Source of the DNA: Gemmatimonadales bacterium
GTDB taxonomy: Bacteria; Gemmatimonadota; Gemmatimonadetes; Gemmatimonadales; GWC2-71-9
Assembly (NCBI GenBank): GCA_036556025.1
Contig: DATBKD010000005.1
Coordinates: 13,845 to 77,844, forward strand
Direction of reading: 5' to 3'
DNA: 64,000 bases
Position numbers and translations under genes: made by a program. Below, piece by piece: positions 1,785 to 59,854 of this stretch. Positions within the stretch are counted from its first letter, which is position 1, and every line of letters begins with the position of its first letter. The notes under the pieces were generated by a model, which saw only the letters and a program-made list of their open reading frames with translations, was not told the origin of the DNA and made no database searches.

Positions 1785-3248
1785 ATGGCGACCACGGCAC
1801 GCATTTCCGCTCCCCGGCGCACCTCCTCGGCCACCGAAGTCCAGAAGCTCCTCGACCTGATCAAGCAGAAAAACATCCAGGTCGTGGATGTGAAGTTCTG
1901 CGACCTTCCGGGGACGTGGCAGCATTTCTCCATCCCGGCCAACACCCTGGATGAGAGCCTGATCCGCGAGGGACTGGGTTTCGACGGCTCCTCCATCCGC
2001 GGCTTCCAGGCGATCAACGAGAGCGACATGCTGCTCATGCCGGATGTCTCGACGGCCTTCGTCGATCCGGTGCTCTCGGTGCCGACGCTGTCGCTCACCT
2101 GCGACATCTACGACCCGATCACGCTGGAGCCCTACTCCCGCGATCCCCGATTCGTTGCGTTCAAGGCCGAGGAGTATCTCCGCACCACCGGCATCGCCAC
2201 CGCCTCCTACTGGGGGCCCGAGGCGGAGTTCTTCATCTTCAACTCCGTCCGGTTCGACCAGAACGCGTTCGAGGGGTACTACCACATCGATTCGGAGGAG
2301 GGGGTCTGGAACTCCGGCCGGAACAGCGGTCCCAACCTGGGCCACCGGCCCCGGCACAAGGAAGGCTACTTCCCGGTTCCGCCGGTGGATCGGTTGCAGG
2401 ACGTGCGGTCCAAGATCATGCTCGCGATGATCGAGGCGGGCGTTCCGGTAGAAGTGCAGCACCACGAGGTCGGCACTGCGGGGCAGGCGGAGATCGACAT
2501 CAAGTTCGGCACCCTGGTCCAGACCGCCGACCGGCTAATGCTGTACAAGTACATCGTGAAGAACGTGTGTCACAACCTGGGGTACACTGCCACCTTCATG
2601 CCCAAGCCGCTTTTTGGAGACAACGGCTCGGGCATGCACTGCCATCAGTCGCTGTGGAAGGGAGACACCCCGCTGTTCTTCGACAAGGACGGCTACGCCC
2701 TCATCTCGGAGACCGCGCGGCATTACATCGGCGGACTGATCGCGCACGCCCCGGCGCTCCTGGCGATCTGTGCTCCGACCACCAACAGTTACCGCCGGCT
2801 GGTTCCCGGCTTCGAGGCGCCGGTCAACCTGATGTACTCGGCGCGCAACCGGTCGGCTATCTGCCGCATCCCGATGTATTCGACCAGTCCCAAGTCCAAG
2901 CGGGTCGAGTTCCGCGCGCCCGACCCCAGCGCGAACCCCTATCTGGCTTTTTCCGCCATGCTGATGGCCGGGCTCGACGGCATCAGGCGGAAGCTCGAGC
3001 CGCCCAAGCCGATCGACGAGGACCTGTACGAAATCCACGACGAGCGCAAGCAACTGATCAAGCAGGTGCCGGGCAGCCTCTCGGAGTCGATCGAAGCCCT
3101 GGAGAAGGACCACGACTTCCTGCTGGCCGGCGACGTGTTCACCGCCGACGTGATCGATACCTGGATCACCATGAAGCGGACCAAGGATATCGCGCCGGTG
3201 ACTCTGCGGCCGCATCCGTACGAGTTTTTCCTGTATTATGACAGCTAA
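1785..3248 (+). CDS. glnA: glutamine synthetase, type I
   Basis: 487-aa ORF. The N-terminal [19 protein letters not shown], the [12 protein letters not shown] motif, [12 protein letters not shown] and the C-terminal region are typical of GlnA. Confidence 0.97.
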
Positions 3249-3403
3249 CAGCTAACAGCTATCAGCTATCAGCTATCAGCTATCAGCTGCGCCACAGCGA
3301 CGCGACCCTCCGGCGCCTTCATCGGAGGGTCGAGTGTCTCGGACTAGCGTTAGCTGTTAGCTGTTAGCCGTCAGCTGTTAGCCGTCAGCTGTTAGCTGTT
3401 AAC
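3242..3403. repeat. E1: tandem-heptamer palindromic hairpin element filling the glnA-ilvD gap
   Basis: The left array (3242-3290) has 7 units: CAGCTAA x2, CAGCTAT x4 and CAGCTGC. The centre holds the stem-loop CGACCCTCCG (3303-3312), a 10-nt loop, then CGGAGGGTCG (3323-3332). The right array (3350-3403) reads TTAGCTG TTAGCTG TTAGCCG TCAGCTG TTAGCCG TCAGCTG TTAGCTG TTAAC, the reverse-complement units. The glnA stop TAA (3246-3248) lies in unit 1. The ilvD ATG is 9 nt after the right array. Confidence 0.9.
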
Positions 3404-10200: not shown

Positions 10201-10683
10201 TCACCTACCAGCCTCTAATGCCACCGCTCCACTCCGAGCCACCTCGAGGACCTCGAAACGCTCGAGCGCGCGGATGCAGGAGAGGACGAAAGCCTCGGAG
10301 CCGGTGAGCTCTACGATCATCGCTTCAGGACTGTCGTCAACCACCGAAGCGTGATAAAGCTGGACGACGTCCAGCAGCTCACCGTAGCGCTCCGCTGGAG
10401 CGCGAACTTTGACCAGGGCCAGTTCCCGGGCCACACCGTCCTGCGCGGCAAAGGAGGTTGCTTCACGCACCCCGATCATCTTCTGCAAATGCTTCACCGC
10501 GCGATCCGCCGCGGAGTCGTCTGACTGAATCATGATGGTAAGCCTCGAAAGTCCAGGGGTCGCCGTGGGTCCCACGGCAATACTGCGCACGGGCAAGTTC
10601 CGCCGACGAATCAACCCGACGGCCCGGGTGAGCGTGATGAGGCGGTCCTCCAGCAGGACCGTAACGGCGTGGGGCGCACTCAT
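10201..10683 (-). CDS. ilvN: acetolactate synthase small (regulatory) subunit
   Basis: 160-aa ACT-domain protein (LLEDRLITLTRAVGLIRRRNLPVRSIAV). Its start overlaps the ilvB stop by 4 nt. Confidence 0.9.
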   Translation of the reverse strand: MSAPHAVTVLLEDRLITLTRAVGLIRRRNLPVRSIAVGPTATPGLSRLTIMIQSDDSAADRAVKHLQKMIGVREATSFAAQDGVARELALVKVRAPAERYGELLDVVQLYHASVVDDSPEAMIVELTGSEAFVLSCIRALERFEVLEVARSGAVALEAGR

Positions 10684-12383
10684 ACCGGCGCGAGCCGGGG
10701 CGAGATCGCTTCCGACTCGATCGGCTCGGACAGGGATGCACCCGGGGGAATCATCGGATAGACGTTGGCTTCCTGCTCGATCTGGAACTCGACCAGGGCA
10801 GGTCCCGGCCGGTCAATCGCCGCCTGGACTGCTTGCTCCACCTCGCCGGCAGTTTCCACTCGCCAGCCGGGAATCCCATACGCCTCCGCCAGGCGAACGT
10901 AATCGGGACTCCAGATCGGCGTCGCCGAGTAACGGCGTCCGTGGAAGAATTGCTGCCATTGGCGGACCATGCCCAGATATCCGTTGTTGAAGATCGCCAT
11001 CTTTACCGGGATGCCTTCCTGCACCATGGTGGCGATCTCCTGCATATTCATCTGAAACCCGCCGTCCCCGGAGATGGCCCATACCGGTTCGCCCGGCCGG
11101 GCCAGGACCACGCCCATGGCCGCGGGCACGGCAAAACCCATCGTGCCGAGCCCACCCGAGGTGATGTGGGTGTTGGGGCGCTGATAGCGGAAAAGCTTGG
11201 CAACCCACATCTGGTGCTGGCCCACGTCGGATACGATGGTGCAGCGCCCGGAGATCAGATCGATGGCCTCCAGGATCCCCTCGGGAGACAGTCCCCCCCG
11301 GAAGCTCTCGGCCCTGGGGCGCACGAAGCCAGCGATCTCCTCTCGCCACTCCTCGCAGGTGCGACTCGGCACCGCCTCGATCAGCCGACCCAGCAGCTCC
11401 CGGGCGTCGCCCACCAGAGCGACGGTGACCGGCACATTCTTGCCGATCTCGGAGGGGTCAAGCTCGAGGTGAATCAGTTTTGCGCCCCGGGCGAAACCGG
11501 CGAGGTTGCCGGTCACCCGGTCGTCGAATCGGAGTCCCACTCCAAGAATGAGATCGGCCTGCTGGATCGCGCGGTTGACGTGGACCTCGCCATGCATGCC
11601 GGGCATGCCGAGATGCAGGGGGTGGGACTCGGGAAAGCCGCTGATGCCGAGCAAGGTGGTGATGACCGGGATCCCGGTCTTTTCGGCGAACGCCCGGAGC
11701 TCGCCGTAGGCATTGCTCAGCACGATGCCGTGGCCGGCCATGATCAGAGGCCGCCTGGCCTCGGCGATGAGCTGGGCGGCGGCTTGTAAGGACGGTAAGG
11801 ACGGTAAGGCGTACCCTTCGGCAACCTTCCCGTCCTTCCCGTCCATTCCGCCTTTACCGCCCTTCCATTCCACCTTCTGGTTCTGCACGTCCTTGGGAAT
11901 ATCGATCAGGACTGGGCCGGGACGTCCCTCCTGGGCCACAGCGAACGCGTCCCGCACCACGTCGGCCAGCTCCCCGGCATCCTCGACCAGCCAGCTGTGT
12001 TTGGTGATCGGCTGGGTGATGCCGATGATGTCGGTTTCCTGGAACGCATCCCGACCCATCATCGCTCGCGCCACCTGTCCGGTAATGGCGACTACAGGGG
12101 TGTTGTCCATGTGCGCCGTGGCCAGACCGGTCACGAGATTGGTAGCGCCCGGTCCCGATGTCGCGACGCAGACTCCCGCTCGCCCGCTGGCACGAGCGTA
12201 GCCATCGGCGGCATGGGCCGCCGCCTGTTCGTGGCGGACCAGCACGTGGCGCAATCCCGGATGCTCGGGCAGTGCATGGTAAAACGGCATGATCGCGCCG
12301 CCGGGATACCCGAAGAGGATTTCGACTCCCTCGTCGAGGAGAGCCTGGCAGAGGATTTGGGCGCCGGTGAGATGCTCCGTCAT
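10680..12383 (-). CDS. ilvB: acetolactate synthase large subunit (ThDP enzyme)
   Basis: 567-aa ORF with SGPGATNLVTGLATAHMD, GGLGTMGFAVPAAMG and GDGGFQMNMQE. It contains the repeat element E2 in frame. Confidence 0.96.
   Translation of the reverse strand: MTEHLTGAQILCQALLDEGVEILFGYPGGAIMPFYHALPEHPGLRHVLVRHEQAAAHAADGYARASGRAGVCVATSGPGATNLVTGLATAHMDNTPVVAITGQVARAMMGRDAFQETDIIGITQPITKHSWLVEDAGELADVVRDAFAVAQEGRPGPVLIDIPKDVQNQKVEWKGGKGGMDGKDGKVAEGYALPSLPSLQAAAQLIAEARRPLIMAGHGIVLSNAYGELRAFAEKTGIPVITTLLGISGFPESHPLHLGMPGMHGEVHVNRAIQQADLILGVGLRFDDRVTGNLAGFARGAKLIHLELDPSEIGKNVPVTVALVGDARELLGRLIEAVPSRTCEEWREEIAGFVRPRAESFRGGLSPEGILEAIDLISGRCTIVSDVGQHQMWVAKLFRYQRPNTHITSGGLGTMGFAVPAAMGVVLARPGEPVWAISGDGGFQMNMQEIATMVQEGIPVKMAIFNNGYLGMVRQWQQFFHGRRYSATPIWSPDYVRLAEAYGIPGWRVETAGEVEQAVQAAIDRPGPALVEFQIEQEANVYPMIPPGASLSEPIESEAISPRLAPV
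11785..11867. repeat. E2: 9-nt-unit palindromic element located in frame inside ilvB
   Basis: The plus strand reads TGTAAGGAC GGTAAGGAC GGTAAGGCG (11785-11811), a centre tacccttcggca, then AACCTTCCC GTCCTTCCC GTCCATTCC GCCTTTACC GCCCTTCCA (11823-11867). On the ilvB sense strand it is translated as WKGGKGGMDGKDGK-VAEGY-ALPSLPSLQ. Confidence 0.85.
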
Positions 12384-38233: not shown

Positions 38234-39610
38234 GTGGCGGCAGTCGAGCGCTCCAGCCGAATGCCGGTGTCCGCTGATGCCGCCTTCGCGTGGCACCAGC
38301 GCCCGGGCGCATTCGAGCGGCTCTTGCCGCCCTGGGAACGAGTCCAGGTCGTCGAACGGCGAGGTGGGCTGGAGGACGGCGGGGAGGTCGTGCTTCGGGT
38401 CCACTTCGGGCCAGTCACCTTTCGTTGGCTGGCCCGCCACCGGGACTACGTACAGGACCGCCAGTTCGCCGATGAGCAGGTGGAGGGGCCCTTCTCCCAC
38501 TGGTTGCATCGGCACGTCTTCGAGCCCGAGGGGGCGAACGCCAGCCGCCTGACCGATCGTATCGAATTCTCCCTGCCCCTCGGTCCGGCGGGCGCCGCCT
38601 TGAGCGACTGGGCTATCCGCTCCCGACTCGAGCGGATGCTGCAGTACCGGCATCGCCTGCTGCAGGATGACCTCAAGGCCCACCAGAGAGCTCCTCAGCA
38701 GAGCCTAAACGTGCTCGTGACCGGCTCGAGCGGGCTAGTGGGCAGCTCCCTGATCCCCTTCCTCACCACCGGGGGACATCGGGTCACCCGGCTGGTGCGT
38801 CGCACGCCGCGCAGCGGAGAAATTCAGTGGGATCCTTCGGCAGGCCGACTGGATCCCGCTGAGCTCGAAGGGATCGATGCCGTCGTGCACCTCGCGGGCG
38901 AGAACCTCGCCGCCCGCTGGTCGCCGGCGCGCAAACGGGCCATCCGCGATAGCCGAGTTTCGGCCACGCGCCTGCTGGCGCACGCGGTCGCCCAGTTGCA
39001 GCGTCGCCCTCGAGTCCTGGTCTCGACGTCCGCGGTCGGGGTTTATGGCAACCGCGGGGACCAGGTTCTCACCGAGACCGACGCAGACTCGGCCACACCG
39101 CCCGATTTCCTGGTCGACGTGGTCCGGGAGTGGGAGGCGGCGACCGAACCGGCTCGAGCGGCAGGCATACGGGTGGTGCTGCTTCGATCGGGATTAGTAC
39201 TCTCCCCGGCCGGCGGTGTGCTCGGGAGGATGTTGCCCGCCTTCCGGATGGGGGCTGGCGGTCGCCTCGGTTCTGGCCGGCAGTGGATGAGTTGGATCGC
39301 CATCGACGACACCATCGGCGCCATTCATCACGCCTTGACGACCGATAGCCTCTCGGGCCCGGTGAATGCGACCGCACCCAATCCGGTCACCAATCGGGAG
39401 TTTGCAGCCACTCTGGGGCGGGTGCTGGGACGCCCGGCGGTCTTGCCCGCGCCGGCCACTGCCCTGCGGCTGGCCTTTGGAGAAATGGCGGACGTTGCCC
39501 TGCTGGCAGGTGCTCGAGTCGTCCCGGCTCGGCTGACCCAAAGTGGCTACCAATTCCGACATCCGCACCTCGAAGACGCGCTGAGGTTTGTGCTTGGACG
39601 TGAGAAGTAA
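38234..39610 (+). CDS. SRPBCC-domain / NAD-dependent epimerase (TIGR01777, DUF1731-type) fusion protein
   Basis: 458-aa ORF with a GTG start. The N-terminus AFAWHQRPGAFERLLPPW is START/SRPBCC-like, followed by VLVTGSSGLVGSSL (Rossmann motif) and a DUF1731-like C-terminus. Its stop codon lies inside E3. Confidence 0.8.
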   Translation: MAAVERSSRMPVSADAAFAWHQRPGAFERLLPPWERVQVVERRGGLEDGGEVVLRVHFGPVTFRWLARHRDYVQDRQFADEQVEGPFSHWLHRHVFEPEGANASRLTDRIEFSLPLGPAGAALSDWAIRSRLERMLQYRHRLLQDDLKAHQRAPQQSLNVLVTGSSGLVGSSLIPFLTTGGHRVTRLVRRTPRSGEIQWDPSAGRLDPAELEGIDAVVHLAGENLAARWSPARKRAIRDSRVSATRLLAHAVAQLQRRPRVLVSTSAVGVYGNRGDQVLTETDADSATPPDFLVDVVREWEAATEPARAAGIRVVLLRSGLVLSPAGGVLGRMLPAFRMGAGGRLGSGRQWMSWIAIDDTIGAIHHALTTDSLSGPVNATAPNPVTNREFAATLGRVLGRPAVLPAPATALRLAFGEMADVALLAGARVVPARLTQSGYQFRHPHLEDALRFVLGREK

Positions 39611-39723
39611 GGAGTGAGAAGTGAGAGGTAAGAAGGCCACCGCCCTCCAGGTACGCTTGGCGCAGCGGGGGCCCTTCTCACCTCTTACTGCTCACATCTC
39701 ACTTCTCACTTCTTACTTCCTTC
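39600..39723. repeat. E3: tandem-heptamer palindromic hairpin element upstream of queC
   Basis: The left array is GTGAGAA GTAAGGA GTGAGAA GTGAGAG GTAAGAA (39600-39634). The centre contains CCCTCC and the mini-hairpin CCAGG-tacg-CTTGG (39647-39660). The right array is TTCTCAC CTCTTAC TGCTCAC ATCTCAC TTCTCAC TTCTTAC TTCCTTC (39675-39723). The upstream stop TAA (39608-39610) lies in unit 2. The queC ATG is 21 nt after the right array. Confidence 0.9.
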
Positions 39724-47690: not shown

Positions 47691-47806
47691 TGGCTATCAG
47701 CTAACAGCTATCAGCCAATCTCAATACTTTCGACCCTCCGATGTGGCTACCGGAGGATCAAAGCAGGTGGAGTAGCTGTTAGCCGATAGCTGATAGCTCC
47801 TAGCTT
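47691..47806. repeat. E5: tandem-heptamer palindromic element (same unit and core as E1) between the convergent cold-shock gene and infA
   Basis: The left array is TGGCTAT CAGCTAA CAGCTAT CAGCCAA (47691-47718). The core is CGACCCTCCG (47731-47740), a 10-nt loop, then CGGAGGATCA (47751-47760). The right array is GTAGCTG TTAGCCG ATAGCTG ATAGCTC CTAGCTT (47772-47806). The infA stop codon (47805-47807) abuts or overlaps the last unit. Confidence 0.88.
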
Positions 47807-51817: not shown

Positions 51818-53052
51818 GAGACCCCAGCCTCCTGCTTGGCAGCGGTTGCAGCGGGCACCCGGCCGTCGGCGCTGATCTGGAACGCCATGATGCCTACCAA
51901 AGCGACGTATCCCCCTGCGACATAGAAGGGCCAGCCGTGACCAATGCGCTGGAAGATGGTAGTGGCGAGAAGCGGCGCGCCTACGCGCGCTAGACCGGCA
52001 AAGGTCTGCGCGACACCCATCGTGGTGCCCAGTTCGCCCGGATCAGAGTAGCGAGACATGAGGGATGTCGTGGCCGGGAACAGCAGCGCCGTCCCGATCG
52101 GCACCAGCGGTATGACCGCGGCCAAGGTCCAGAGATCCCTCGGCATAGGATACAGCACCAGCCCAAGGGCGAGAAGGGCGGTCCCCGTGCGCATCGTCCA
52201 GACCTCGCCGAGGCGATCCACGATCGGGCCCAGGAGCAGGCTGCGCATGACCAGCGACAGCGCTCCGATGTACGCGAAGATAGGTCCGATGTTCGCCTCG
52301 GTCAGCCGGAACTCCGCACCCAGGTACAAGGCCAGCACCGACGTCATGGACGAGAACGCCAGCATCCCCACGCCGTAGATCCAGATCAGGCGCGACACCG
52401 GTTGCGCCGGATGGCGCACCACCAGCCACGCCGGGTGCCAGAGGGGCCTGTGCGGCGGCCTGCCGACGGCGGCTGCGCGGCTCCGCGACTCAGGTAGCCA
52501 TTTCCAGGCGAACCCCACATTCAACAGACACAGGGCCGCGGCAACCAGCCCCGGGACCTCATGGCCGAAGTGGAAAGCGAACGAGCCCAGGGCCGGGCCC
52601 AGAATCACACCGGCCGAGGTGGCGGCCGAGAGCCAGCCCAGGGCTCGGGCCCGATCCTTGGGCTCGATGGAATCGGCCACGTACGCCTGGGCCACTCCGG
52701 TCGTGCCGCCGCCGGCCCCCTGCACGATTCGCGATGCCAGCAGCAGCCAGACGCTGTCGGCAAAACTGAACACGACGTAGGCAATGGCCGACGCACTCAA
52801 GCCGATCAGCAGGGCCGGCCGACGCCCATAGCGATCGGAGACCCGCCCCCACACCGGGGCGGCGAGCAGCTGCGCGATGGAGAACGAGGCGATCAGCTGG
52901 CCGACCGTTTCGGGCGAGGCGTTCAGCTTGAGGGCGTAGAACGGCAGCAGCGGGAGCACGATCATGAAGCCGATCATGTCCACGAAGTTGACCGCGATCA
53001 GCACCGCCAGCCGCCGGAAGTTGGCACCCGGGCCAGGCCCGGCCAGCTTCAT
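51814..53052 (-). CDS. MFS transporter
   Basis: The start is trimmed to ATG 53052, which overlaps the permease TGA (ATGA). The 412-aa product has about 12 hydrophobic segments and the MFS motif A GRVSDRYGRRPALL. Confidence 0.88.
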   Translation of the reverse strand: MKLAGPGPGANFRRLAVLIAVNFVDMIGFMIVLPLLPFYALKLNASPETVGQLIASFSIAQLLAAPVWGRVSDRYGRRPALLIGLSASAIAYVVFSFADSVWLLLASRIVQGAGGGTTGVAQAYVADSIEPKDRARALGWLSAATSAGVILGPALGSFAFHFGHEVPGLVAAALCLLNVGFAWKWLPESRSRAAAVGRPPHRPLWHPAWLVVRHPAQPVSRLIWIYGVGMLAFSSMTSVLALYLGAEFRLTEANIGPIFAYIGALSLVMRSLLLGPIVDRLGEVWTMRTGTALLALGLVLYPMPRDLWTLAAVIPLVPIGTALLFPATTSLMSRYSDPGELGTTMGVAQTFAGLARVGAPLLATTIFQRIGHGWPFYVAGGYVALVGIMAFQISADGRVPAATAAKQEAGVS

Positions 53053-54707
53053 CCGCCACTCCCTCGCTCGGCGCCGAGCGCGAAGACCGCGGCACTCACC
53101 AGCATGAGTACCACGCCGTAGGCCGCCGCGACTCCCACGTCGGACTGGCGCAGACTGGAGAGAATCTCGAGTGAGATAGGCCGGGTGTCGTAGGTGTACA
53201 GCATGATGGAGGTCACGAAATCTCCGAACGCAGTCACAAAGGCGAGGCTGGCTCCGGCCACAAGAGCCGGCCGCAGCAGCGGAAGAACGACTCGCCTCAG
53301 AGTTCGCGCTCGACCCGCCCCGAGGCTGGCGGACGCCTCCTCCAGGGAGGGATCCAGCGCCCGGAAACCCGCGAAGATCGCCCGGCTGGTGATCGGCAGG
53401 TTCCTTACGAGGTAGGCCAGGGGAAGGATCCAGACCGTCCCCACCAGGATGAACCGGCCAGCCGCCGGTGCGTGGACACTGAAGGCCGCCGCCAGCGCAA
53501 TGGCGAACACGGTTCCCGGCACCGCCCACGGGAGCGCCAGAAGTCCCTCGATGAGCCGAGCGCCCCGGAGCCGCCCTCGCGCACTGACGACGCCGCCCAG
53601 AAGCGCAATCGCGACCGCCGCGACGGTCGCCGCGGTGGCCAGCCACAGACTATTGAGCAGCGGGCGCACTCGGACAGGATCGTGAACCAGCGCCAGATAG
53701 TTCGCCAGCGTATACGCCGGCGGAAGCGGCTCCGTAGTCCAAGTCCCGACCGGCACAAACGAGACCAGCAGAAGGGTGAGGTGCGGAAGCAAGAGGACGC
53801 CGGCGAATCCCCAGGCGAAGACGGTAAGCAGCCGGCGGGTCAGCGGGTGGCGCAACGGAATGCGGGCCGGCGCGACGCCCTTCCTTCCGCCCGCCGGGTT
53901 ATCCGGGGCGTGGGTGCCGCGGAGCAGCCAGAGGGCGAGCAGGGCGAGAATGGTGAGCGAGATGGTTTCCACCATCGCAAGCTCGTTCTCGCCGTTGAGG
54001 CGGGTGGCGACGATCTGGGTCGTCATCACCCGATAGCCTCCCCCAAAGATGTAGGGCGCACTGAAGGAGGCCAACGAGGTCATGAAGGTGAGAATTGCGG
54101 CGCCGGTGAGCGAGGGATACAGCTGGGGCAAAACCACCCGCCTCAGGGTACGCCAGCGGCCGGCTCCAAGACTGGCGGCCGCCTCGTAGAGCGAGAGGTC
54201 CAGGGAGGCCAGCCCGGCGCGACCGAAGAGATAGAAGTAGACGTACATCGAGTAGGCGTGAACCAGAAGAATCGCCCACGCCCCCTGAAATTGCCACGGC
54301 GGGTTTTCGAGACGGAGAAGCCGCTGAACCAGCAGCGAGACGAACCCGGTCTCACCATAGAGAAAGAGAAAGGCCATCACGCCGACCAGCGGCGGGAGCA
54401 CTGCCGGGAGCGCCACCAGCCCTCCCAGGATTCGGCCGCCGGGCAGCTCATAGCGGGCAAGGAGGACAGCGAGCGGAAGACCAATCGCCGCGGCGAGCAC
54501 CACACTCGCCAGGGAGATCCACAGGCTGCCCCACAGGGCTTGCCACTCGCTGGGGCGCTGGAAGAACTGCCGCACGTATGCCAGCGTCCAACCGGAAGGC
54601 TCATGCAGGCCTTCGATCAGCACCAGGATGATGGGATAGACCACCAGCCAGAGCAGCAGCAGGAGGAGGCCCACGGCAGCGATTCGTGCCGCTCGGGGGC
54701 CGGTCAC
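53049..54707 (-). CDS. ABC transporter permease, fused two-domain (iron(III)/thiamine-type)
   Basis: 552-aa ORF with two repeats of a 6-TM permease module carrying EAA-like loops (YEAAASLGAGRWRTLRRVVLP and LEEASASLGAGRARTLRRVVLP). Its GTG start overlaps the ATPase stop. Confidence 0.88.
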   Translation of the reverse strand: MTGPRAARIAAVGLLLLLLWLVVYPIILVLIEGLHEPSGWTLAYVRQFFQRPSEWQALWGSLWISLASVVLAAAIGLPLAVLLARYELPGGRILGGLVALPAVLPPLVGVMAFLFLYGETGFVSLLVQRLLRLENPPWQFQGAWAILLVHAYSMYVYFYLFGRAGLASLDLSLYEAAASLGAGRWRTLRRVVLPQLYPSLTGAAILTFMTSLASFSAPYIFGGGYRVMTTQIVATRLNGENELAMVETISLTILALLALWLLRGTHAPDNPAGGRKGVAPARIPLRHPLTRRLLTVFAWGFAGVLLLPHLTLLLVSFVPVGTWTTEPLPPAYTLANYLALVHDPVRVRPLLNSLWLATAATVAAVAIALLGGVVSARGRLRGARLIEGLLALPWAVPGTVFAIALAAAFSVHAPAAGRFILVGTVWILPLAYLVRNLPITSRAIFAGFRALDPSLEEASASLGAGRARTLRRVVLPLLRPALVAGASLAFVTAFGDFVTSIMLYTYDTRPISLEILSSLRQSDVGVAAAYGVVLMLVSAAVFALGAERGSGG

Positions 54708-55780
54708 GGTGTGGGCTCCGGGAAGAGGTGAATGCCGCCCCCCGCGCGACGGCTGGGCATGACGCCGACCTGTTCACCGATCCGAACTGCCTGGTGCGGT
54801 GCGACGACCTCGATGGCGGCGCCGCTCCCCTCTACCACGACAGTGTAGAGGGCAGACGGTCCCACGAAGCGTCGCTCCCGAACGGTGGCGCTGAGAGCAC
54901 CCGCGGCCGGTGGCGTCAGCCGAAGCGCCTCGGGTCGCACCAGCATCAGGGCTGGTCCCGGAGGTACGGGCGGGCCGTCCTCCCGGCGCTCCACGTCCCA
55001 CTCAGCCGGGCCGATCCGCACCCGGGTCCCCTGTTCGCCCCGGCCAAGGACCTCGACCCGGAGACTACTGGATCGTCCCACGAACCGAGCGACGAAGGGA
55101 TTGGCCGGGGTGACGTACAACTCGTCCGGAGTTCCGGCCTGTTCCAGCCGGCCCTGGCACAGAACCGCTACCCGATCGCCCAGATCGAAGGCCTCGTCCT
55201 GTTCGTGGGTGACCAGAATCGTCGTGATGCCGACCCGCCGGATCACGTCCCGAATTTCGCGCCGAGTCCGCTCACGAAGGGTGGGATCGAGGTTGGAGAG
55301 AGGCTCGTCCAGGAGGAGCACCCTCGGCTCCGGCGCCAGCGCCCGGGCCAGTGCGACCCGCTGCTGTTGCCCGCCAGACAGCTGCGAGATCTTTCGCCGC
55401 TCGAAGCCCTCCAGGTCCACCAGCGTGAGCGCCCGGGCCACGCGGCGGTCCAGCTCGTCCCCGCGCACCCCGAGCGACTCCAGACCGAACGCCACGTTGC
55501 TGCCGGCATCCAGGTGGGGAAAGAGAGCATAGTGCTGAAAGACCATTCCGAACCGCCGAGCCACCGGCTCGAGCTGGGTAACATCTTCGCCATCTACCAG
55601 CACCCGACCCCCGTCGGGCACCTCGAATCCGGCCAGGAGCCGGAGCGTGGTGGTCTTCCCGCTGCCGCTGGGGCCAAGCAGAGCCAGCATCTCGCCGCGG
55701 TTCAGCGAAAGCGTCAAACCGTCGACCGCCAGGGTGCCGTCGAAGCGCTTGACCAGATCCTGAAGCTGGAGAAACGTCAC
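54704..55780 (-). CDS. ABC transporter ATP-binding protein
   Basis: GTG 55780 overlaps the binding-protein TGA (GTGA). It has Walker A GPSGSGKTT, the signature LSGGQQQRVALARAL and Walker B LLLDEPLSNLD. Confidence 0.92.
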   Translation of the reverse strand: MTFLQLQDLVKRFDGTLAVDGLTLSLNRGEMLALLGPSGSGKTTTLRLLAGFEVPDGGRVLVDGEDVTQLEPVARRFGMVFQHYALFPHLDAGSNVAFGLESLGVRGDELDRRVARALTLVDLEGFERRKISQLSGGQQQRVALARALAPEPRVLLLDEPLSNLDPTLRERTRREIRDVIRRVGITTILVTHEQDEAFDLGDRVAVLCQGRLEQAGTPDELYVTPANPFVARFVGRSSSLRVEVLGRGEQGTRVRIGPAEWDVERREDGPPVPPGPALMLVRPEALRLTPPAAGALSATVRERRFVGPSALYTVVVEGSGAAIEVVAPHQAVRIGEQVGVMPSRRAGGGIHLFPEPTP

Positions 55781-56943
55781 CGCTTTCCCGTGTTGCGCAC
55801 GTGCCGGTCCCAGTAGCTCATCCAGGCGGTCCCATTGCGAGCGAGCAGGTCCCAGTCCATGTGAGTCACCACCATCTGGCTCTCCACCTGTGCCACCCAC
55901 GCGGGAATTCGGTCGCTTGGCAGGTCGCGCCTGGCCGGAAGCCGAAATACTCGGTCGGCAGCGAGCAACTGACCTTCCTCGCTGCCCACGTAGTCGATGA
56001 ACGCCCTGGCGGCCTCGGCGTGGTGACAACCCTTGACCAGGCCGATCGCGTCGTCGATCACCACGGTTCCGCTGGTCGGAAAGACATAGTCGAAGGGCAG
56101 TCCTTTGGACCGGCTGATCAACACATCCGGAAGATCCCACAAGGTCAGGAGTCCCTCGCCCCGGGCGAGCCGGGCATCGAGGATCGCCGGGTTCAAGGTG
56201 TACGCCTTGGTCTGGCCGTCCAGCCGCCTGAGCCAGGCGATGCCTTGAGTGGTGTCGCCCGTCTCCCGAAGACTGCGCACCAGGATGAGGCCCCAGATCG
56301 CACGCATGGTACCGCTCGCCATGGGATCGCGGATCAGGATCTTGCCGCTCCAGCGCGGAGCGAGCACCTCGTCCCAATCCTTGGGCGCGCGCTCCCGGGA
56401 CAGCAGCCGATCATTGAACGCAATCACCACCGGCGTGCGGTAAACCGGATAGTACAGATCATTCGGGCCCACGCCACCGGTGCCCACATGATCCGCCCAG
56501 GCGGGACGATACGGGGCCAGCAGCGAATCCTTGACGCCGCGGTCAAAAATCGTGGTGGGCCCGCCGAACCACACGTCCGCCTGGGGGTTGACCCGCTCGA
56601 ACCGTAACCGATCGAGGATCTCCTGGGATCCCATGTCGAGCCAGCGCACGTCAATGTCCGGCCGCTTGGCCTCGAAGGCATGCTCCAGCAGCGTGAGCTG
56701 ATCTCGGCCGTGGGGCGAGTAGAGGACGAGGGGGGTCCGGTGGTCGGAGGTGCAGGCGGTAAGGACGGGAAGGGCGGTAAGGGCGGTAAGGACGGGAAGG
56801 ACGGTAATGACGGGAAGGACGGGAAGGACGGGAAGGACGGGAAGGGCGGGAAGGCACACGACGAGGGACCTACTCGCGTGTTTCCGAAACCAACGCAGTA
56901 GGTCCCTCCCTTCGCTGGGGATCACGCTCGAGGTTCTTCGCAC
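55777..56943 (-). CDS. ABC transporter periplasmic substrate-binding lipoprotein (iron(III)-type family 1 binding protein)
   Basis: The mature domain starts around PLVLYSPHGRDQ. The lipobox is LTAC. The only in-frame start codons between the upstream gene's stop and the mature domain are GTG 56943 (preceded by AGAGGA), GTG 56925 and GTG 56859, and all lie upstream of the 9-nt array. The array is therefore translated as LPALPVLPVLPVLPVITVLPVLTALTALPVLTAC. Confidence 0.8.
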   Translation of the reverse strand: MRRTSSVIPSEGRDLLRWFRKHASRSLVVCLPALPVLPVLPVLPVITVLPVLTALTALPVLTACTSDHRTPLVLYSPHGRDQLTLLEHAFEAKRPDIDVRWLDMGSQEILDRLRFERVNPQADVWFGGPTTIFDRGVKDSLLAPYRPAWADHVGTGGVGPNDLYYPVYRTPVVIAFNDRLLSRERAPKDWDEVLAPRWSGKILIRDPMASGTMRAIWGLILVRSLRETGDTTQGIAWLRRLDGQTKAYTLNPAILDARLARGEGLLTLWDLPDVLISRSKGLPFDYVFPTSGTVVIDDAIGLVKGCHHAEAARAFIDYVGSEEGQLLAADRVFRLPARRDLPSDRIPAWVAQVESQMVVTHMDWDLLARNGTAWMSYWDRHVRNTGKR

Positions 56944-56999
56944 TCTCTGTCCTCTGCCTCCCTTCCCCGTCCTTACCGCCCTTCCCGCCCTTCTCGCCC
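56758..56999. repeat. E6: 9-nt-unit palindromic element between the PIG-L gene and the ABC binding-protein gene
   Basis: The left array has 11 units of GG(G/T)AAGG(A/G)C (56758-56856). The centre is the 12-bp stem GAGGGACCTACT (56863-56874), a 22-nt loop, then AGTAGGTCCCTC (56897-56908). The right array has 4-5 units including GTCCTTACC GCCCTTCCC GCCCTTCTC (56958-56999). The upstream gene's TAA (complement of 56973-56975) lies inside a unit. Confidence 0.9.
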
Positions 57000-59648
57000 A
57001 TGCGCCAAGGCTAGCAGATTGGCGAACAGGCGGAAGGCGCCGGGAACGCCGGCCGGCAGCTGCCGGAAAAAGCTGAGCCCGGTGTAGACGTAGGTTCCCT
57101 TCCCTGCCCGGGCGATGAGAAGTCCGCCTTCGAGCGGCGCATCGCCCGCATCGTGGGTCTCCAGGATCGGCCGATAGGCCCGGTCCCAACTCCGCGCGAA
57201 GTACAGACCTCGCTCCTGGATCCAACCCTGCCAATCGGATGGCTCCAGCCGGTTAGGCCGCATCACAACCAGGTCCTGCGGGGTCAGGACCCGCACCGGT
57301 GCGGTTTCATCGGTCACCCTGTCGTGCACCACCATGGACTGACCCGCTGGCGCGCCGGCAAAGCCACTGCTCTGACCCGGCGGTTGAAGTGCGGGCCCTC
57401 CCACGGTCATGGAGTAGGGCGCAAAGCCCCCGTGGAAAAAGAACTGCTGCTGGTACTGGACGATGAGCAGCCCGCCGTCGCGGAGGTACTGCAGCAGTCG
57501 ATCGTTGTTCTCTACCAGGGCGGAGTCGGTTTCATAGGCCCGGGGGCCGACGACGATGGCGTCATAGCGGTGAAGGTCGGCATGCTCCAGCGTCTGCCTA
57601 TCGAGAAGCACGACGGGCACACCGACTTCTTCGAGTGCTTCAGGAACCTGATCCGCCGCCCCTCGGACATAGCCGACCCGAGCCAGCTGGGGAAGAGCGA
57701 CCGGACTCAGTCGAACGGTCGCGGTCGCCGCACGGATATAGGAACGGGGACGGATGTGCGGATAGGCGACGGTATAGTCGCCGACGTCATAGTCCCGGCC
57801 CAGAGTGTCTCGGGCAACCGCTCGGATCTGCGCGGTCACCTTCCGCGATGCCGCAGGCGGCCGCACCTGGAAGATGAAGGTCTCCCTCTGATCCTCCCGC
57901 TCCAGCCGGAAGGACTGCTGCGGCACCGGCGGCCACCCCTGGGGTAACATGAGCCGGACCCGGCCGGCCGTGGTGTCCTTGGCCCCGTGGGTCAGAGTGA
58001 CGATAAGCCGATGGGTCTTAGGCGCCAGCGTGGGCCATAGCTCCATGGAGGGCTCGAGCTTGACATCCACTCGCGGCACCACGGTGAGCGGCCGGCGGAT
58101 CTCGCCGCGTGCCTGATCGACCGTGCGGAAGACCACCTCCCGCTCCACGGTGAACCGCCCTGCACTGTCCATTACCGTGAACCTGCCACTCAGCGTCGGT
58201 GGGGCGAACGGGAGCCCCCGCACCTCGGGCGGCGCGCCGTCCCACCGGTAGAGGGCAGTCCCCGCAGGGTCCAGGCTGAAGTACGGGGTAGTAGTCTGGT
58301 CGCCGGCTACGACTGTGATCTGGGACCTCATCATCTGCCCTGGGCCGACCGGCCTCTCTTCGCCGTCCGGTCCCCGAATGGTCCATCCGTCGCCGGCCGC
58401 AAGTCGGATGGCAACCCGCGCCGCCCGGCCGGATGGATTCCATACGGTCAGCAGGGCGTGAACCTCCTGCCCCGGAACAATCCTGTCGTCATCGGCCACG
58501 GCGTCGAAAACGAGGGGTGACGCGGCTTCGGCAGCGGCGTCGAGGTGCCGCAGCTGGTCGGCCTCAGCGGCACTGGGACCCGAGGACCAGGCATTGCCAC
58601 TGGCCTTGGGCGGAAGATCGGACTCGAACTCTTGTCGAAGTGAGATCAGTCTGGCGGCGAGATTTGAGTCTGCCAACCTTGCCGGCCGGAGCGCTCCCAG
58701 CTTTCGGGCCAGGTCGGACCACGCGGCCGGCGTCGTGGGCCTGCCGGCCGACGAGGAGGCGGTGCGTGGATCGGCCGCTGCGAGCGTGGTATCGATTCCG
58801 TCCCACAGACCGCCCGCACCCAGGCGACTCCGGTCCTGCCACAAGGCCAGCCGTATGGGAGAGGGTCCCATGTCCTGAAGCCGTCCCATGTCTTGCGAGC
58901 GATGCAGGCTTCGCCCTGCCATCGCAATCTGATGGAATGACTTGCCGACAGCTGGATCGAGGACGCCTCCCTCGAGGGTGAGCGTCGTGGATCCGCTGTC
59001 GAACCGGGTGCTGCGATAGAGCTTGATCGGGGTCCAGGCCGCCAGATGCTCCTCCCGCTCCAACTCGGGAAAGGCCGACGAGTCCCCGGCGATCCGAAAC
59101 GCCTCCTGGGATGCCCATCCCGCCGCTTGATGCTGCCCGTGGCCATCGCGCGGGGTCCCACTGAACACCGACACGACGATCTGAGGACGAAACCGGCGGA
59201 TGACGCGAACCACATCTTTGAGGATTGTGTCCTTGGACCAGTGCTGCCAGGTCTCGTCCAAGGTCTTGGAGTACCCGAAATCGTAGGCCCGGGTAAAATA
59301 CTGCCGCGCTCCATCCAGTCGGCGAGCGGCCAGGAGCTCCTCGGTGCGAATCAGTCCCAGAGCTTCCCCCAGCTCCGGGCCGATCAGATTCTGGCCACCC
59401 TCGCCGCGGTTGAGCGACAGGTAGGCTGCTTCGGAGCCCATGCCCCGCACGAGGACGGTCAGCAGCTCGGTATCCTCGTCGTCCGGGTGGGCGCCGATCA
59501 TCAGCACCCGCTTGTAGTGCCCCAGAAACCGGAGCTCCCGGTCCAGAGCGACGATACCGCCGGTGGACGGCGGCTCCAGTTGAGCCGATGCGGCGGGAGC
59601 GATGGCGAAACCGAAGAGCGCGGAGAGGGCGATGAGCCTGCGAGGCAA
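56973..59648 (-). CDS. PIG-L/LmbE-family deacetylase fused to a large C-terminal region, secreted
   Basis: 891-aa ORF with a TTG start and a signal peptide (MPRRLIALSALFGFAIAPAASA). It has VLMIGAHPDDEDTELL, the PIG-L motif. The C-terminal 8 residues GREGREGR are encoded by the E6 right arm. Confidence 0.82.
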   Translation of the reverse strand: MPRRLIALSALFGFAIAPAASAQLEPPSTGGIVALDRELRFLGHYKRVLMIGAHPDDEDTELLTVLVRGMGSEAAYLSLNRGEGGQNLIGPELGEALGLIRTEELLAARRLDGARQYFTRAYDFGYSKTLDETWQHWSKDTILKDVVRVIRRFRPQIVVSVFSGTPRDGHGQHQAAGWASQEAFRIAGDSSAFPELEREEHLAAWTPIKLYRSTRFDSGSTTLTLEGGVLDPAVGKSFHQIAMAGRSLHRSQDMGRLQDMGPSPIRLALWQDRSRLGAGGLWDGIDTTLAAADPRTASSSAGRPTTPAAWSDLARKLGALRPARLADSNLAARLISLRQEFESDLPPKASGNAWSSGPSAAEADQLRHLDAAAEAASPLVFDAVADDDRIVPGQEVHALLTVWNPSGRAARVAIRLAAGDGWTIRGPDGEERPVGPGQMMRSQITVVAGDQTTTPYFSLDPAGTALYRWDGAPPEVRGLPFAPPTLSGRFTVMDSAGRFTVEREVVFRTVDQARGEIRRPLTVVPRVDVKLEPSMELWPTLAPKTHRLIVTLTHGAKDTTAGRVRLMLPQGWPPVPQQSFRLEREDQRETFIFQVRPPAASRKVTAQIRAVARDTLGRDYDVGDYTVAYPHIRPRSYIRAATATVRLSPVALPQLARVGYVRGAADQVPEALEEVGVPVVLLDRQTLEHADLHRYDAIVVGPRAYETDSALVENNDRLLQYLRDGGLLIVQYQQQFFFHGGFAPYSMTVGGPALQPPGQSSGFAGAPAGQSMVVHDRVTDETAPVRVLTPQDLVVMRPNRLEPSDWQGWIQERGLYFARSWDRAYRPILETHDAGDAPLEGGLLIARAGKGTYVYTGLSFFRQLPAGVPGAFRLFANLLALAHGREGREGR

Positions 59649-59651
59649 GAG

Positions 59652-59854
59652 GTCGAGAGGTTAGAAGTTAGCAGTGAGCAGTGAGCAGTGAATAGTGAGC
59701 AGTGAGTAGGAGCCAGTGAGCAGTGGATCGACGGAGCAACCTCCATAATGCCGTGCGCGGGAACGGCCTCGGGGAGCTACTTCTTACTTTTCACGCGTTA
59801 CCGCACGGCGCACTGCTTTCGGCTTTCTCACTCCTTACTGCTGACTGCTATCTC
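59652..59854. repeat. E7: tandem-heptamer palindromic element between a small membrane-protein gene and the PIG-L gene
   Basis: The left array (59652-59728) has about 11 units, including GGTTAGA AGTTAGC AGTGAGC AGTGAGC AGTGAAT AGTGAGC AGTGAGT AGGAGCC AGTGAGC. The centre has GGAG-caac-CTCC (59733-59744). The right array (59776-59854) is good at the outer end (TTCTCAC TCCTTAC TGCTGAC TGCTATC) and degenerate toward the centre. The upstream stop TAG (complement of 59848-59850) lies in the outer unit. The downstream TTG start (59648) is 3 nt beyond the other array. Confidence 0.85.

Follow-up and report, generated by a model that had tools for sequence, protein, structure and literature searches.

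Short repeats that are written into bacterial genes, or that lie at their borders, are known in several forms. In Neisseria opa, CTCTT pentamers form coding repeats in the hydrophobic core of the signal peptide, and with this 5-nt unit a change in copy number shifts the frame and acts as an on/off switch. Neighboring genes can be coupled in translation through an NTGA overlap, and structures that occlude a ribosome-binding site are also known. Rickettsia palindromic elements (RPE) are dispersed palindromes of unique sequence, about 100-150 bp long, that lie in frame in open reading frames (ORFs) and are found in surface loops of the proteins (PMC10969869). REP, BIME and REPIN sequences, which are mostly intergenic, each consist of one imperfect palindrome, 20-40 bp long, that has a GTAG or CGTC head and is linked to RAYT transposases, and the roles proposed for REP include mRNA stabilisation and termination (PMC3116915, PMC3733652). 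PARCEL are coding domain repeats of 25 residues, each unit internally palindromic, in the mature part of membrane-targeted or lipoprotein ORFs, with variable copy number (PMC2996958). The TAACTGA heptamer direct repeats of Beggiatoaceae, Cyanobacteria and Bacteroidetes lie just upstream of many start codons and are non-coding, with one indirect repeat in 170 sets (PMC4679880). In open-access papers and preprints, to which our literature search was limited, we found no description of bacterial hairpins made of inverted tandem arrays. Here, we describe such a hairpin, E6, in a stretch of 64,000 nt from a Gemmatimonadales soil bacterium (GenBank assembly GCA_036556025.1, contig DATBKD010000005.1, positions 13,845 to 77,844 of the forward strand), which we call the window and by whose positions all features are given. 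E6 lies where a minus-strand gene of the PIG-L family (LmbE-like deacetylase, 891 aa; 56973..59648; Pfam PIG-L and NPCBM_assoc) meets the minus-strand gene of a predicted ABC transporter substrate-binding lipoprotein (55777..56943). We consider it likely, from sequence comparison, that E6 is a composite palindromic repeat in a gene junction without spacer and that one of its arms has been recruited as coding sequence for a signal peptide.

E6 is a real feature, far beyond chance. The whole element is 243 bp long with arms of 40-98 nt, and each arm is an array of 9-nt units. In Tandem Repeats Finder (TRF), the left array covers 56757-56854 of the plus strand with period 9, 10.9 copies, 88% matches, 0% indels and a score of 140, and its plus-strand consensus is CGGGAAGGA. 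On the mRNA, which is read from the minus strand, this is a pyrimidine-rich arm of CTTCCCGTC, CTTACCGCC and variants, as also seen in translation, in hydropathy and in the arrays of orthologues. The right array (56960-56999; period 9, 4.3 copies, 3% indels, one 10-nt unit) has the unit CCCTTCCCG, the reverse complement of the left-array unit. On the mRNA it is a purine-rich arm, GGGCGAGAA GGGCGGGAA GGGCGGTAA GGACGGGGAA GGGAGG, recognised by TRF, by translation and by its complementarity to the left arm, and it is not in the frame of the binding protein. A repeat search showed the two arms to be reverse-complementary at 79-91% in several registers (e.g. 34 nt at 91%). It also placed between them a central minus-strand hairpin (56863..56908), in which a perfect 12-bp stem, GAGGGACCTACT / AGTAGGTCCCTC (56863-56874 with 56897-56908), encloses a loop of 22 nt and which is translated within ...EGRDLLRWFRKHASRSLV.... 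Two opposed 9-nt arrays around a 12-bp stem had been noticed in a preliminary description made from the window alone, and both searches recovered them; the left array given there as 99 nt and 11 units exists, with its size corrected to 98-99 nt and 10.9 units.

The minus-strand RNA of 56740-57010 folded to -135.9 kcal/mol, against a mean of -104.6 (sd 5.2) for dinucleotide shuffles, which corresponds to z = -6.0, and none of 200 shuffles was equally stable. Rfam gave no match in the whole window at gathering thresholds; with the cut-off relaxed to E<=1, the E6 region gave no more than generic matches of a long hairpin to models of miRNA precursors (e.g. 44 bits with a threshold of 168). Within 56500-57500 we found no intrinsic terminator, that is, no GC-rich stem-loop with a U tract, the 3' arm being followed by ACCGCCUGCACCUCC. 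The same interval contained no sigma-70-like promoter, although the sigma-70 consensus may not apply in this phylum.

The inner part of E6 (56855..56940, minus strand) is a decayed copy of a second dispersed palindrome, identified by motif search and alignment, whose consensus in relatives is CTGTCATCCCGAGCGRAGCGAGGGATC ... GATCCCTCGTCGC..CTCGGGATGACAG. In an alignment with the loci L002, L204 and L205, the window keeps the left half of this palindrome (GTGATCCCCAGCGAAGGGAGGGACC) and the core stem, and the right half is replaced by array units. All three loci have the intact palindrome between the arms at the binding-protein junction, and the central stem of E6 is the core that they keep. By motif search, an intact palindrome of about 150 bp, CTGTCATCCCGAGCGRAGCGAGGGATC...GATCCCTCGTCGCTGGCGCTCCTCGGGATGACAG, lies between 9-mer arrays in L151, L158, L164 and L203, and L169 has two copies without arrays. 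As a side observation, the palindrome occurs nested or alone in L169, L151, L158, L164, L203 and L116 (Gemmatimonadales metagenome-assembled genome (MAG) H1_18) and also in L125. Gene callers read it as ...VIPSEARDLL... in several binding-protein N-termini, and contigs of MAG H1_18 often end inside arrays.

The reading frame of the binding protein passes through the pyrimidine-rich arm. After the PIG-L stop, the only canonical in-frame starts are GTG 56943, 56925 and 56859, and the left array lies downstream of all of them. Translation of this frame in the window shows no canonical start from the end of the array to the mature domain and only ATT 56808 within the array. The left array is translated as LPALPVLPVLPVLPVITVLPVLTALTALPVLTA, with the units LPA LPV LPV LPV LPV ITV LPV LTA LTA LPV LTA, and is followed by Cys (TGC 56754-56752). 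It supplies the hydrophobic core and the lipobox positions -3 to -1. The Cys codon (56752..56754, minus strand) directly follows the last unit, aligns with a Cys in homologues and would encode residue +1 of the mature lipoprotein.

The likeliest start is the GTG at 56941..56943 (minus strand), the first in-frame start after the PIG-L stop and 29 nt beyond it, from which a precursor of 388 aa with 63 codons before the Cys is obtained. An equivalent GTG is invariant in the aligned window, L002, L204 and L205, and gene callers chose it for the homologous proteins P0002 and P0128-P0131. A Shine-Dalgarno-like GAGGA (56950..56954, minus strand), 6 nt upstream, may function here; a second such run, AAGGGAGG, lies at 56957-56964 in the last purine-arm unit, and the equivalent in L002 is AAGGA-CAGAGA-GTG. 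In the leader starting at GTG 56943, residues 1-25 hold 7 Arg/Lys against 2 Asp/Glu, a positive N-terminal region. The Kyte-Doolittle 11-residue mean exceeds 1.5 between residues 26 and 55 or so, and the hydrophobic core spans about 35 residues. The alternative GTG at 56857..56859 (minus strand; MCLPALPV...) has neither a Shine-Dalgarno sequence nor a positive N-terminal region, and a gene caller used its equivalent for P0001. In the alignment of the window with L002, L204 and L205, the non-array indel between GTG and Cys measures 24 nt, a multiple of 3. The 11 units of the translated arm are exactly 9 nt each, whereas other unit lengths occur in the arm that lies outside this frame, namely a 10-nt unit in the window and 8-nt units in L002. 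Separately, the idea that the purine arm always forms a Lys-rich positive leader was rejected; GAC-GGG-AAG reads D-G-K and ACG-GAG-AGG reads T-E-R, with no net charge.

The mature part of the protein is well conserved. We used the best 120 homologues, all of Gemmatimonadales type where named, and 136 sequences for the lipobox counts. In addition to these homologues, the gene assignment rests on Pfam SBP_bac_6, SBP_bac_1, SBP_bac_11 and SBP_bac_8 and on ratios of nonsynonymous to synonymous substitution rates (dN/dS) of 0.06-0.15; JGI names the homologues iron(III) transport substrate-binding protein (AfuA-like). All full-length homologues have the Cys followed by xDxRTPVVLYSPHGRD. The residue at -1 to this Cys is A, S or G in 135 of the 136 sequences and that at -3 is mostly L, V or I; the array end, L-T-A-C, fits the lipobox pattern [LVI][ASTVI][GAS]-C. 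For the mature part, comparison with L002, whose architecture is the same, gave a dN/dS of 0.06, and comparison with L010, L013 and L038 gave 0.11-0.15; as judged from these ratios the mature binding protein is under strong purifying selection. Because the lipobox is conserved, the export signal must lie upstream of the Cys. Of 122 homologues, 12 have a tripeptide period in the stretch that precedes the Cys, with a lag-3 identity of at least 0.5; among shuffled sequences the share is 0.3%. A database search with the array peptide alone, a low-complexity query, gave two uninformative matches at E of about 6.

From these results, the array is very probably translated, with the start at GTG 56943 and a leader of 63 residues, and we infer that the binding protein is exported and lipidated by way of the array-encoded peptide. 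The preliminary description had listed the same three GTG codons and no start downstream of the array, which the frame translation reproduces. Its proposal that the left array is translated as a signal-peptide core ending in a lipobox gains support from the conserved Cys, the purifying selection on the mature part, the lack of a downstream start, the lack of frame-breaking indels in the translated arm and the similar tripeptide-periodic signal peptides of many orthologues.

Comparison of the orthologous junctions in 80 metagenomic Gemmatimonadales loci suggests how a repeat could become coding here. The gene order from PIG-L to the binding protein is kept in L001-L004, and the PIG-L C-terminal motif FRLFANLL is found upstream in at least 43 loci. 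In repeat-free loci, no more than 31-50 nt separate the PIG-L stop from the Cys codon. Relative to the end of that stop, 23 loci have an in-frame ATG, GTG or TTG at offset -4, an NTGA overlap, and 11 further loci have an in-frame start at offset -11 (ATG in 8 and GTG in 3), mostly in ATGGGCGGTAA or ATGGGCGGTGA. Given these NTGA and -11 starts in relatives, we consider that the PIG-L and binding-protein genes overlapped ancestrally, with no intergenic DNA, and were presumably coupled in translation. A relic ATG at 56999..57001 (minus strand) lies in the conserved CATGGGCG, where relatives start the binding protein in overlap with the end of PIG-L. The window's ATG, being out of frame, leads into an ORF of only 43 codons.

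About one third of the 80 loci have tandem arrays at this junction, many of them as complementary arm pairs, with units that differ among lineages; in a rough neighbour-joining tree, array-bearing loci fall in at least two clades. The distal arm of relatives is read as SVL, TAL, PVL or CVF repeats. The purine and pyrimidine units are GACGGGAAG and CTTCCCGTC in L038 and L037 (peptides MGGDGKDGKDGK...LPVFPVLPVLPVLPAFSAC) and GACGGAGAG and CTCTCCGTC in L010 (peptides MTERTERTKKTEG...LLSVLSVLSVLSVLAC). L026 has CACGAAGGA and CTTCGTGC, read as HEDTKDTK...FVPFVFFVP, and L028 has an irregular GGCGG-type run with CCTTTACCG, the sole arm called by TRF, which gives TAF repeats. An 8-mer pair is present in L012 and L014, and a 7-mer pair, GTGCGTG / CACGCAC, in L077 and L081, with a similar one in L083. 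The period-9 arrays reach to within 15 nt of the Cys codon, whereas clear period-7 and period-8 arrays end about 24 to 65 nt before it, and this is the pattern expected from a coding filter. In L032, the translated arm MTVRSVFSVLSVLSVLSAC is kept and the complementary arm is lost, so an arm can persist as coding sequence alone. L003 and L004, at 88-90% identity, have a simple hairpin without the inner insert, with an ATG and a short positive N-terminus (MPPARAF..., MRPAGIS...) in the loop, and their last purine-arm unit supplies AAGGAGG or GGAAGGA. Many orthologues, such as L011, L013, L017 and L060, have no hairpin. The preliminary description had raised the question whether orthologous signal peptides lack the repeat, and these loci answer it: repeats are often present in them, made of different units.

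The number and type of units also vary between close relatives. The window protein has 11 units, and P0001, at 97% identity to it, has 8 (LPA LPA LPV LPV LTA LTA LTV LTA). In clusters at 90% identity or more, P0131 is one TAL unit longer than P0130 and P0145 is two units longer than P0144. At the DNA level, the alignment of L204 with L205 (P0131 and P0130) shows a difference of exactly one 9-nt unit in the pyrimidine arm. Within such clusters the unit type turns over as well (TAL, SVL, SVF, CVL), and turnover is far quicker in the signal-peptide region than in the mature part. Of all loci examined, the window has the longest array, with 98 nt against at most about 70 nt elsewhere. These whole-unit differences and the exact 9-nt indel bear out an expansion and contraction in 3-residue steps, as had been suggested for the window, and slippage would be its probable cause. 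Another leader type, MGGKAVWRYGGTGV...TALPPYRRTA... followed by SVL repeats, was observed in P0123, P0133-P0135 and P0137 and looks like a palindromic unit (WRYGG with PPYRxTA). Since this leader type occupies the same junction, repeat types are replaced even among proteins of at least 90% identity.

The explanation that we prefer for E6 can be set out as follows. Its outer part is a hairpin of inverted 9-nt arrays, with the unit GACGGGAAG in the 5' arm of the mRNA and CTTCCCGTC in the 3' arm, from a family that is dispersed in Gemmatimonadales genomes, and its inner part is the decayed second palindrome. Because the PIG-L stop overlaps the binding-protein start in repeat-free relatives, any insert at this junction must be translated. 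A 9-nt period keeps the reading frame, and the 3' arm can serve as a hydrophobic core because T or C at codon position 2 gives Leu-Pro-Val or Leu-Thr-Ala. The last unit is always an Ala-ending variant (LTA) that forms the lipobox with the next Cys. The 5' arm supplies the PIG-L end (EGREGR) and Shine-Dalgarno-like purine runs. In the window lineage, the nested palindrome would have broken the old overlapping start; since the nested insertion put the conserved ATG out of frame, the start would have been displaced to GTG 56943, now the most likely one. The resulting signal peptide of 63 residues would take its positive N-terminal region from the inner palindrome and its core of about 35 residues from the array, and slippage by whole units would let it vary in 3-residue steps between strains.

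Several points weigh against this explanation. A core of about 35 residues with about 8 prolines is far outside typical lipoprotein signal peptides. The usual core has about 7-22 residues and no regular helix breakers, and here Pro stands at every third position in 8 of the 11 units; homologues without repeats have signal peptides of 14-25 residues in total. The 9-nt array keeps the frame automatically, and hence frame conservation alone is not evidence of selection. The comparison sequences are mostly metagenome contigs or MAGs, so assembly could affect the unit counts, and the contigs of L116, L164 and L203 end inside arrays. Finally, no second array-encoded signal peptide was found in 185 kb of other Gemmatimonadota loci (28 among the matches listed), a search in which the high GC content produces many spurious long open frames. 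One candidate from that search, a Cu/Zn-SOD-like lipoprotein in L188, was rejected; it has its own start downstream of the array. It looks like the array-encoded signal peptide is a special case of a spacer-less junction and not a general property of the repeat family.

On the other hand, the hairpin may be kept for a function in the RNA, where it would mask the ribosome-binding site or the first codons and thereby enforce coupling to PIG-L or require melting, with signal-peptide coding as the price. We regard this as a real possibility, if a doubtful one. Arrays recur at the PIG-L/binding-protein junction: several clades have them, at least five unrelated units are involved, and complementarity was seen in each case where both arms were detected. 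At 34 loci the start overlaps or abuts the PIG-L stop, and the hairpin there follows directly after the coupled start. The purine arm has GGAGG- or AAGGA-like runs and the other arm an anti-Shine-Dalgarno-like CCUUCC. In the predicted fold of E6 (z = -6), the mean unpaired probability from -15 to +12 around GTG 56943 is only 0.35. Yet the many hairpin-free orthologues (e.g. L011, L013, L017, L060) speak against an RNA function, as does L032, which lost the partner arm and kept the coding arm. The same repeat family is also found in ordinary intergenic regions. Furthermore, the complementarity of arms in quasi-palindromes can be maintained by template switching without selection, which also counts against this possibility. 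When everything up to 12 nt beyond the stop was held single-stranded in the model, the Shine-Dalgarno sequence and the GTG were still predicted to pair with surplus proximal units of the 11-unit arm (minimum free energy -90.6 kcal/mol). Folding thus does not favor, and does not show, that a terminating PIG-L ribosome would free the binding-protein start, although the preliminary description had proposed that expression of the binding protein would depend on ribosomes that complete PIG-L.

A broader proposal, which we make tentatively and hold to be rather doubtful, is that Gemmatimonadales contain an undescribed repeat class of 7-9-nt inverted-array hairpins with mutually homogenised arms, which repeatedly colonises gene junctions, creates or replaces signal peptides in its 9-nt versions, and couples genes by its hairpin. 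The pyrimidine arm would then become a Leu-x-x core and the purine arm a hydrophilic leader with Shine-Dalgarno-like sequences, so that the binding-protein signal peptide would be a rapidly evolving, repeat-born export signal doubling as regulatory RNA. In 444 kb (the window and L001-L084), tandem arrays of at least 3 copies had period 7 (34 arrays), 9 (35) or 8 (8), and other periods were nearly absent, a bias which suggests that arrays of 7-9-nt units arise in this lineage through a specific process or constraint. The three-unit E6 pattern was found in at least 119 stretches of species-representative genomes, with 28 Gemmatimonadota among the matches listed, to which one MAG contributes 7 contigs and the MAG with L002 contributes 4. 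Some three quarters of the matches listed are non-Gemmatimonadota, many of them Streptomyces and other actinomycetes, and probably represent coding Gly-Lys repeats. Members of the E6 family lie in ordinary intergenic regions as well.

The window itself has sibling elements of the same plan, inverted arrays around a short hairpin, at 3242-3401, 39600-39719 and 47693-47798, and a 9-mer copy at 11786-11866. Those at 3242-3401 and 47693-47798 have the 7-nt units CAGCTAT/TAGCTGT and GCTATCA/TAGCTGA around a central hairpin GACCCTCCG...CGGAGGGTC or CGGAGGATC, and they cannot be coding because these 7-mers carry stop codons. The first of them fills the entire gap from the glutamine synthetase stop to the dihydroxy-acid dehydratase start. 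At 39600-39719, inverted 7-mer arrays (GTGAGAA x5.1 and CTTCTCA x6.6) begin at the end of an ORF that stops at 39610. The copy at 11786-11866 (GTAAGGACG x2.7 and CCTTCCCGC x4.7) is in frame in the gene of the acetolactate synthase large subunit (minus-strand ORF 10680-12383), in the linker between the TPP_N and TPP_M domains, where it reads ...VEWKGGKGGMDGKDGKVAEGYALPSLPSLQ.... A 27-residue insertion was considered for this palindrome and rejected; the linker exceeds that of Arabidopsis AHAS by only about 4 residues, and the palindrome thus sits in a region that varies naturally and is no net insertion.

The variable unit number could also act as a tuning knob of the contingency type, in which core length alters export or processing and hence the transporter dosage across the population. 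Whole-unit differences between proteins of at least 90% identity, the longest array in the window and the faster turnover of the signal-peptide region than of the mature protein are in keeping with it. However, we think it unlikely, as this variation is also what neutral slippage predicts, and a 9-nt unit cannot switch a gene on and off like known phase-variable repeats.

It is quite improbable that the array has over-expanded so far that the binding protein is no longer exported, a casualty of a selfish repeat whose signal peptide is only apparent. The unusual core, some 35 residues long and in large part with a Pro every three residues, and the loss of the ancestral overlapping start could be taken in this sense; in addition, the exact window protein is absent from a collection of 15 billion proteins, hence there is no second observation of this allele. 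Against over-expansion, the ORF is intact over the 1.17-kb gene, dN/dS remains 0.06 against L002 of the same architecture, and the ATPase and permease genes further downstream are intact as well. The array still ends in LTA, a unit compatible with the lipobox, and independent lineages with PVL or PVF cores (P0001, P0103, L037, L038) have intact genes. A start at the non-canonical, in-frame ATT 56808 inside the array, by which the last 6 units would be translated into a 19-residue signal peptide, ITVLPVLTALTALPVLTAC, of typical lipoprotein length, is very hard to credit, because ATT start codons are very rare, the pyrimidine-rich region upstream has no Shine-Dalgarno-like sequence, a positive N-terminal region would be lacking, and four genomes preserve the upstream GTG together with its frame in spite of indels.

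The other arm of E6 reaches into the PIG-L gene. The PIG-L stop TAA (56975-56973, minus strand) lies inside the third purine-arm unit, and the protein ends in ...LALAHGREGREGR (in a longer stretch, ...FRLFANLLALAHGREGREGR), of which GREGREGR and the TAA are encoded by the right array. This agrees with the preliminary description, by which the right array encodes the last 8 PIG-L residues and the stop. Not all of GREGREGR is an addition, however: the stop falls in the first purine-arm unit in L002, L003 and L004, whose proteins end in ...HGR*, and HGR is common to relatives that stop there, so that only EGREGR is extra. In relatives with this unit type the stop is TAA, TAG or TGA. Two units of the window read GAA in place of the TAA of relatives, and PIG-L is thereby extended by EGREGR. 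This tail is, in our view, a passive and trivial read-through of two units, to which we attach no function. A further array lies at the other end of the gene: at 59666-59725, immediately upstream of the PIG-L start, the window has a direct-only heptamer array, AGTGAGC x8.6 on the plus strand (GCTCACT on the mRNA strand). L001 and L002 have TCTCACT x10 at 1187-1257 on the PIG-L coding strand, upstream of the called start in L001 and just inside a longer call in L002. Downstream in the same-strand run are the genes of an ABC ATPase (54704-55780, minus strand), which overlaps the binding-protein gene in the window and in L002, and of an ABC permease (53049-54707, minus strand). Between the binding-protein and ATPase genes, 7-mer arrays were seen in L034 (3455-3497), L038 (2908-2940), L041 (3521-3600) and L069 (3283-3318).

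Signal peptides are usually seen as degenerate sequences that evolve by point mutation, and here an export signal is apparently written by the arm of a repetitive hairpin. If export is true, Sec and SPase II would tolerate a core that is about 35 residues long and has a Pro every three residues, and the junction would be a case in which a selfish or structural DNA repeat was naturally recruited as coding sequence. It would also provide a natural series of core lengths, from 5 to 11 units, for studies of lipoprotein export. Additionally, our finding points to a dispersed family of array-armed hairpins, absent from Rfam, in a poorly studied soil phylum. Arrays of this kind break short-read assemblies and mislead the calling of start codons.

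Compared with the described systems, E6 resembles opa in having a translated tandem repeat in the signal-peptide core, with a copy number that varies, presumably by slippage. Phase-variable repeats of the opa type have a unit that is not a multiple of 3, whereas the 9-nt unit of E6 keeps the frame across relatives and changes only the length. Moreover, opa has no inverted partner array and does not lie in a dispersed palindromic element. Like RPE and other in-frame, MITE-like repeats (MITE, miniature inverted-repeat transposable element), E6 has a palindrome inside an ORF that is translated and is tolerated or co-opted, its inner palindrome reading ...VIPSEGRDLLRWFRKHASRSLV..., but it comes from a different phylum, has a different architecture, namely tandem arrays in a signal peptide, and shows no sequence relation to RPE. 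The inverted arrays could count as the terminal inverted repeats of a MITE, although their ends are fuzzy. With REP, E6 shares the multi-copy nature of a short, dispersed, hairpin-forming repeat at gene ends; it differs from the REP palindrome in its arms, which are tandem arrays of 7-9-nt units, in its length of 243 bp, and in an inner palindrome of about 150 bp when intact.

PARCEL has in common with E6 tandem coding repeats with dyad symmetry in the DNA, a variable copy number and a lipoprotein ORF, whereas E6 has two opposed arrays of a 3-residue unit across a gene junction and a signal peptide. Sibling arrays in the window, such as AGTGAGC x8.6 by the PIG-L start, are like the TAACTGA repeats and the cyanobacterial STRR repeats, but those have no complementary partner arm. 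The NTGA overlap in relatives and the predicted pairing of the Shine-Dalgarno sequence and start codon in the window hairpin recall systems of translational coupling; in the window, however, the overlap is lost in favor of a 29-nt gap, and the modelled terminating ribosome would not free the ribosome-binding site. In summary, E6 lacks the defining features of opa, RPE, REP/REPIN, PARCEL and the heptamer repeats, and each of these shares one aspect with it.

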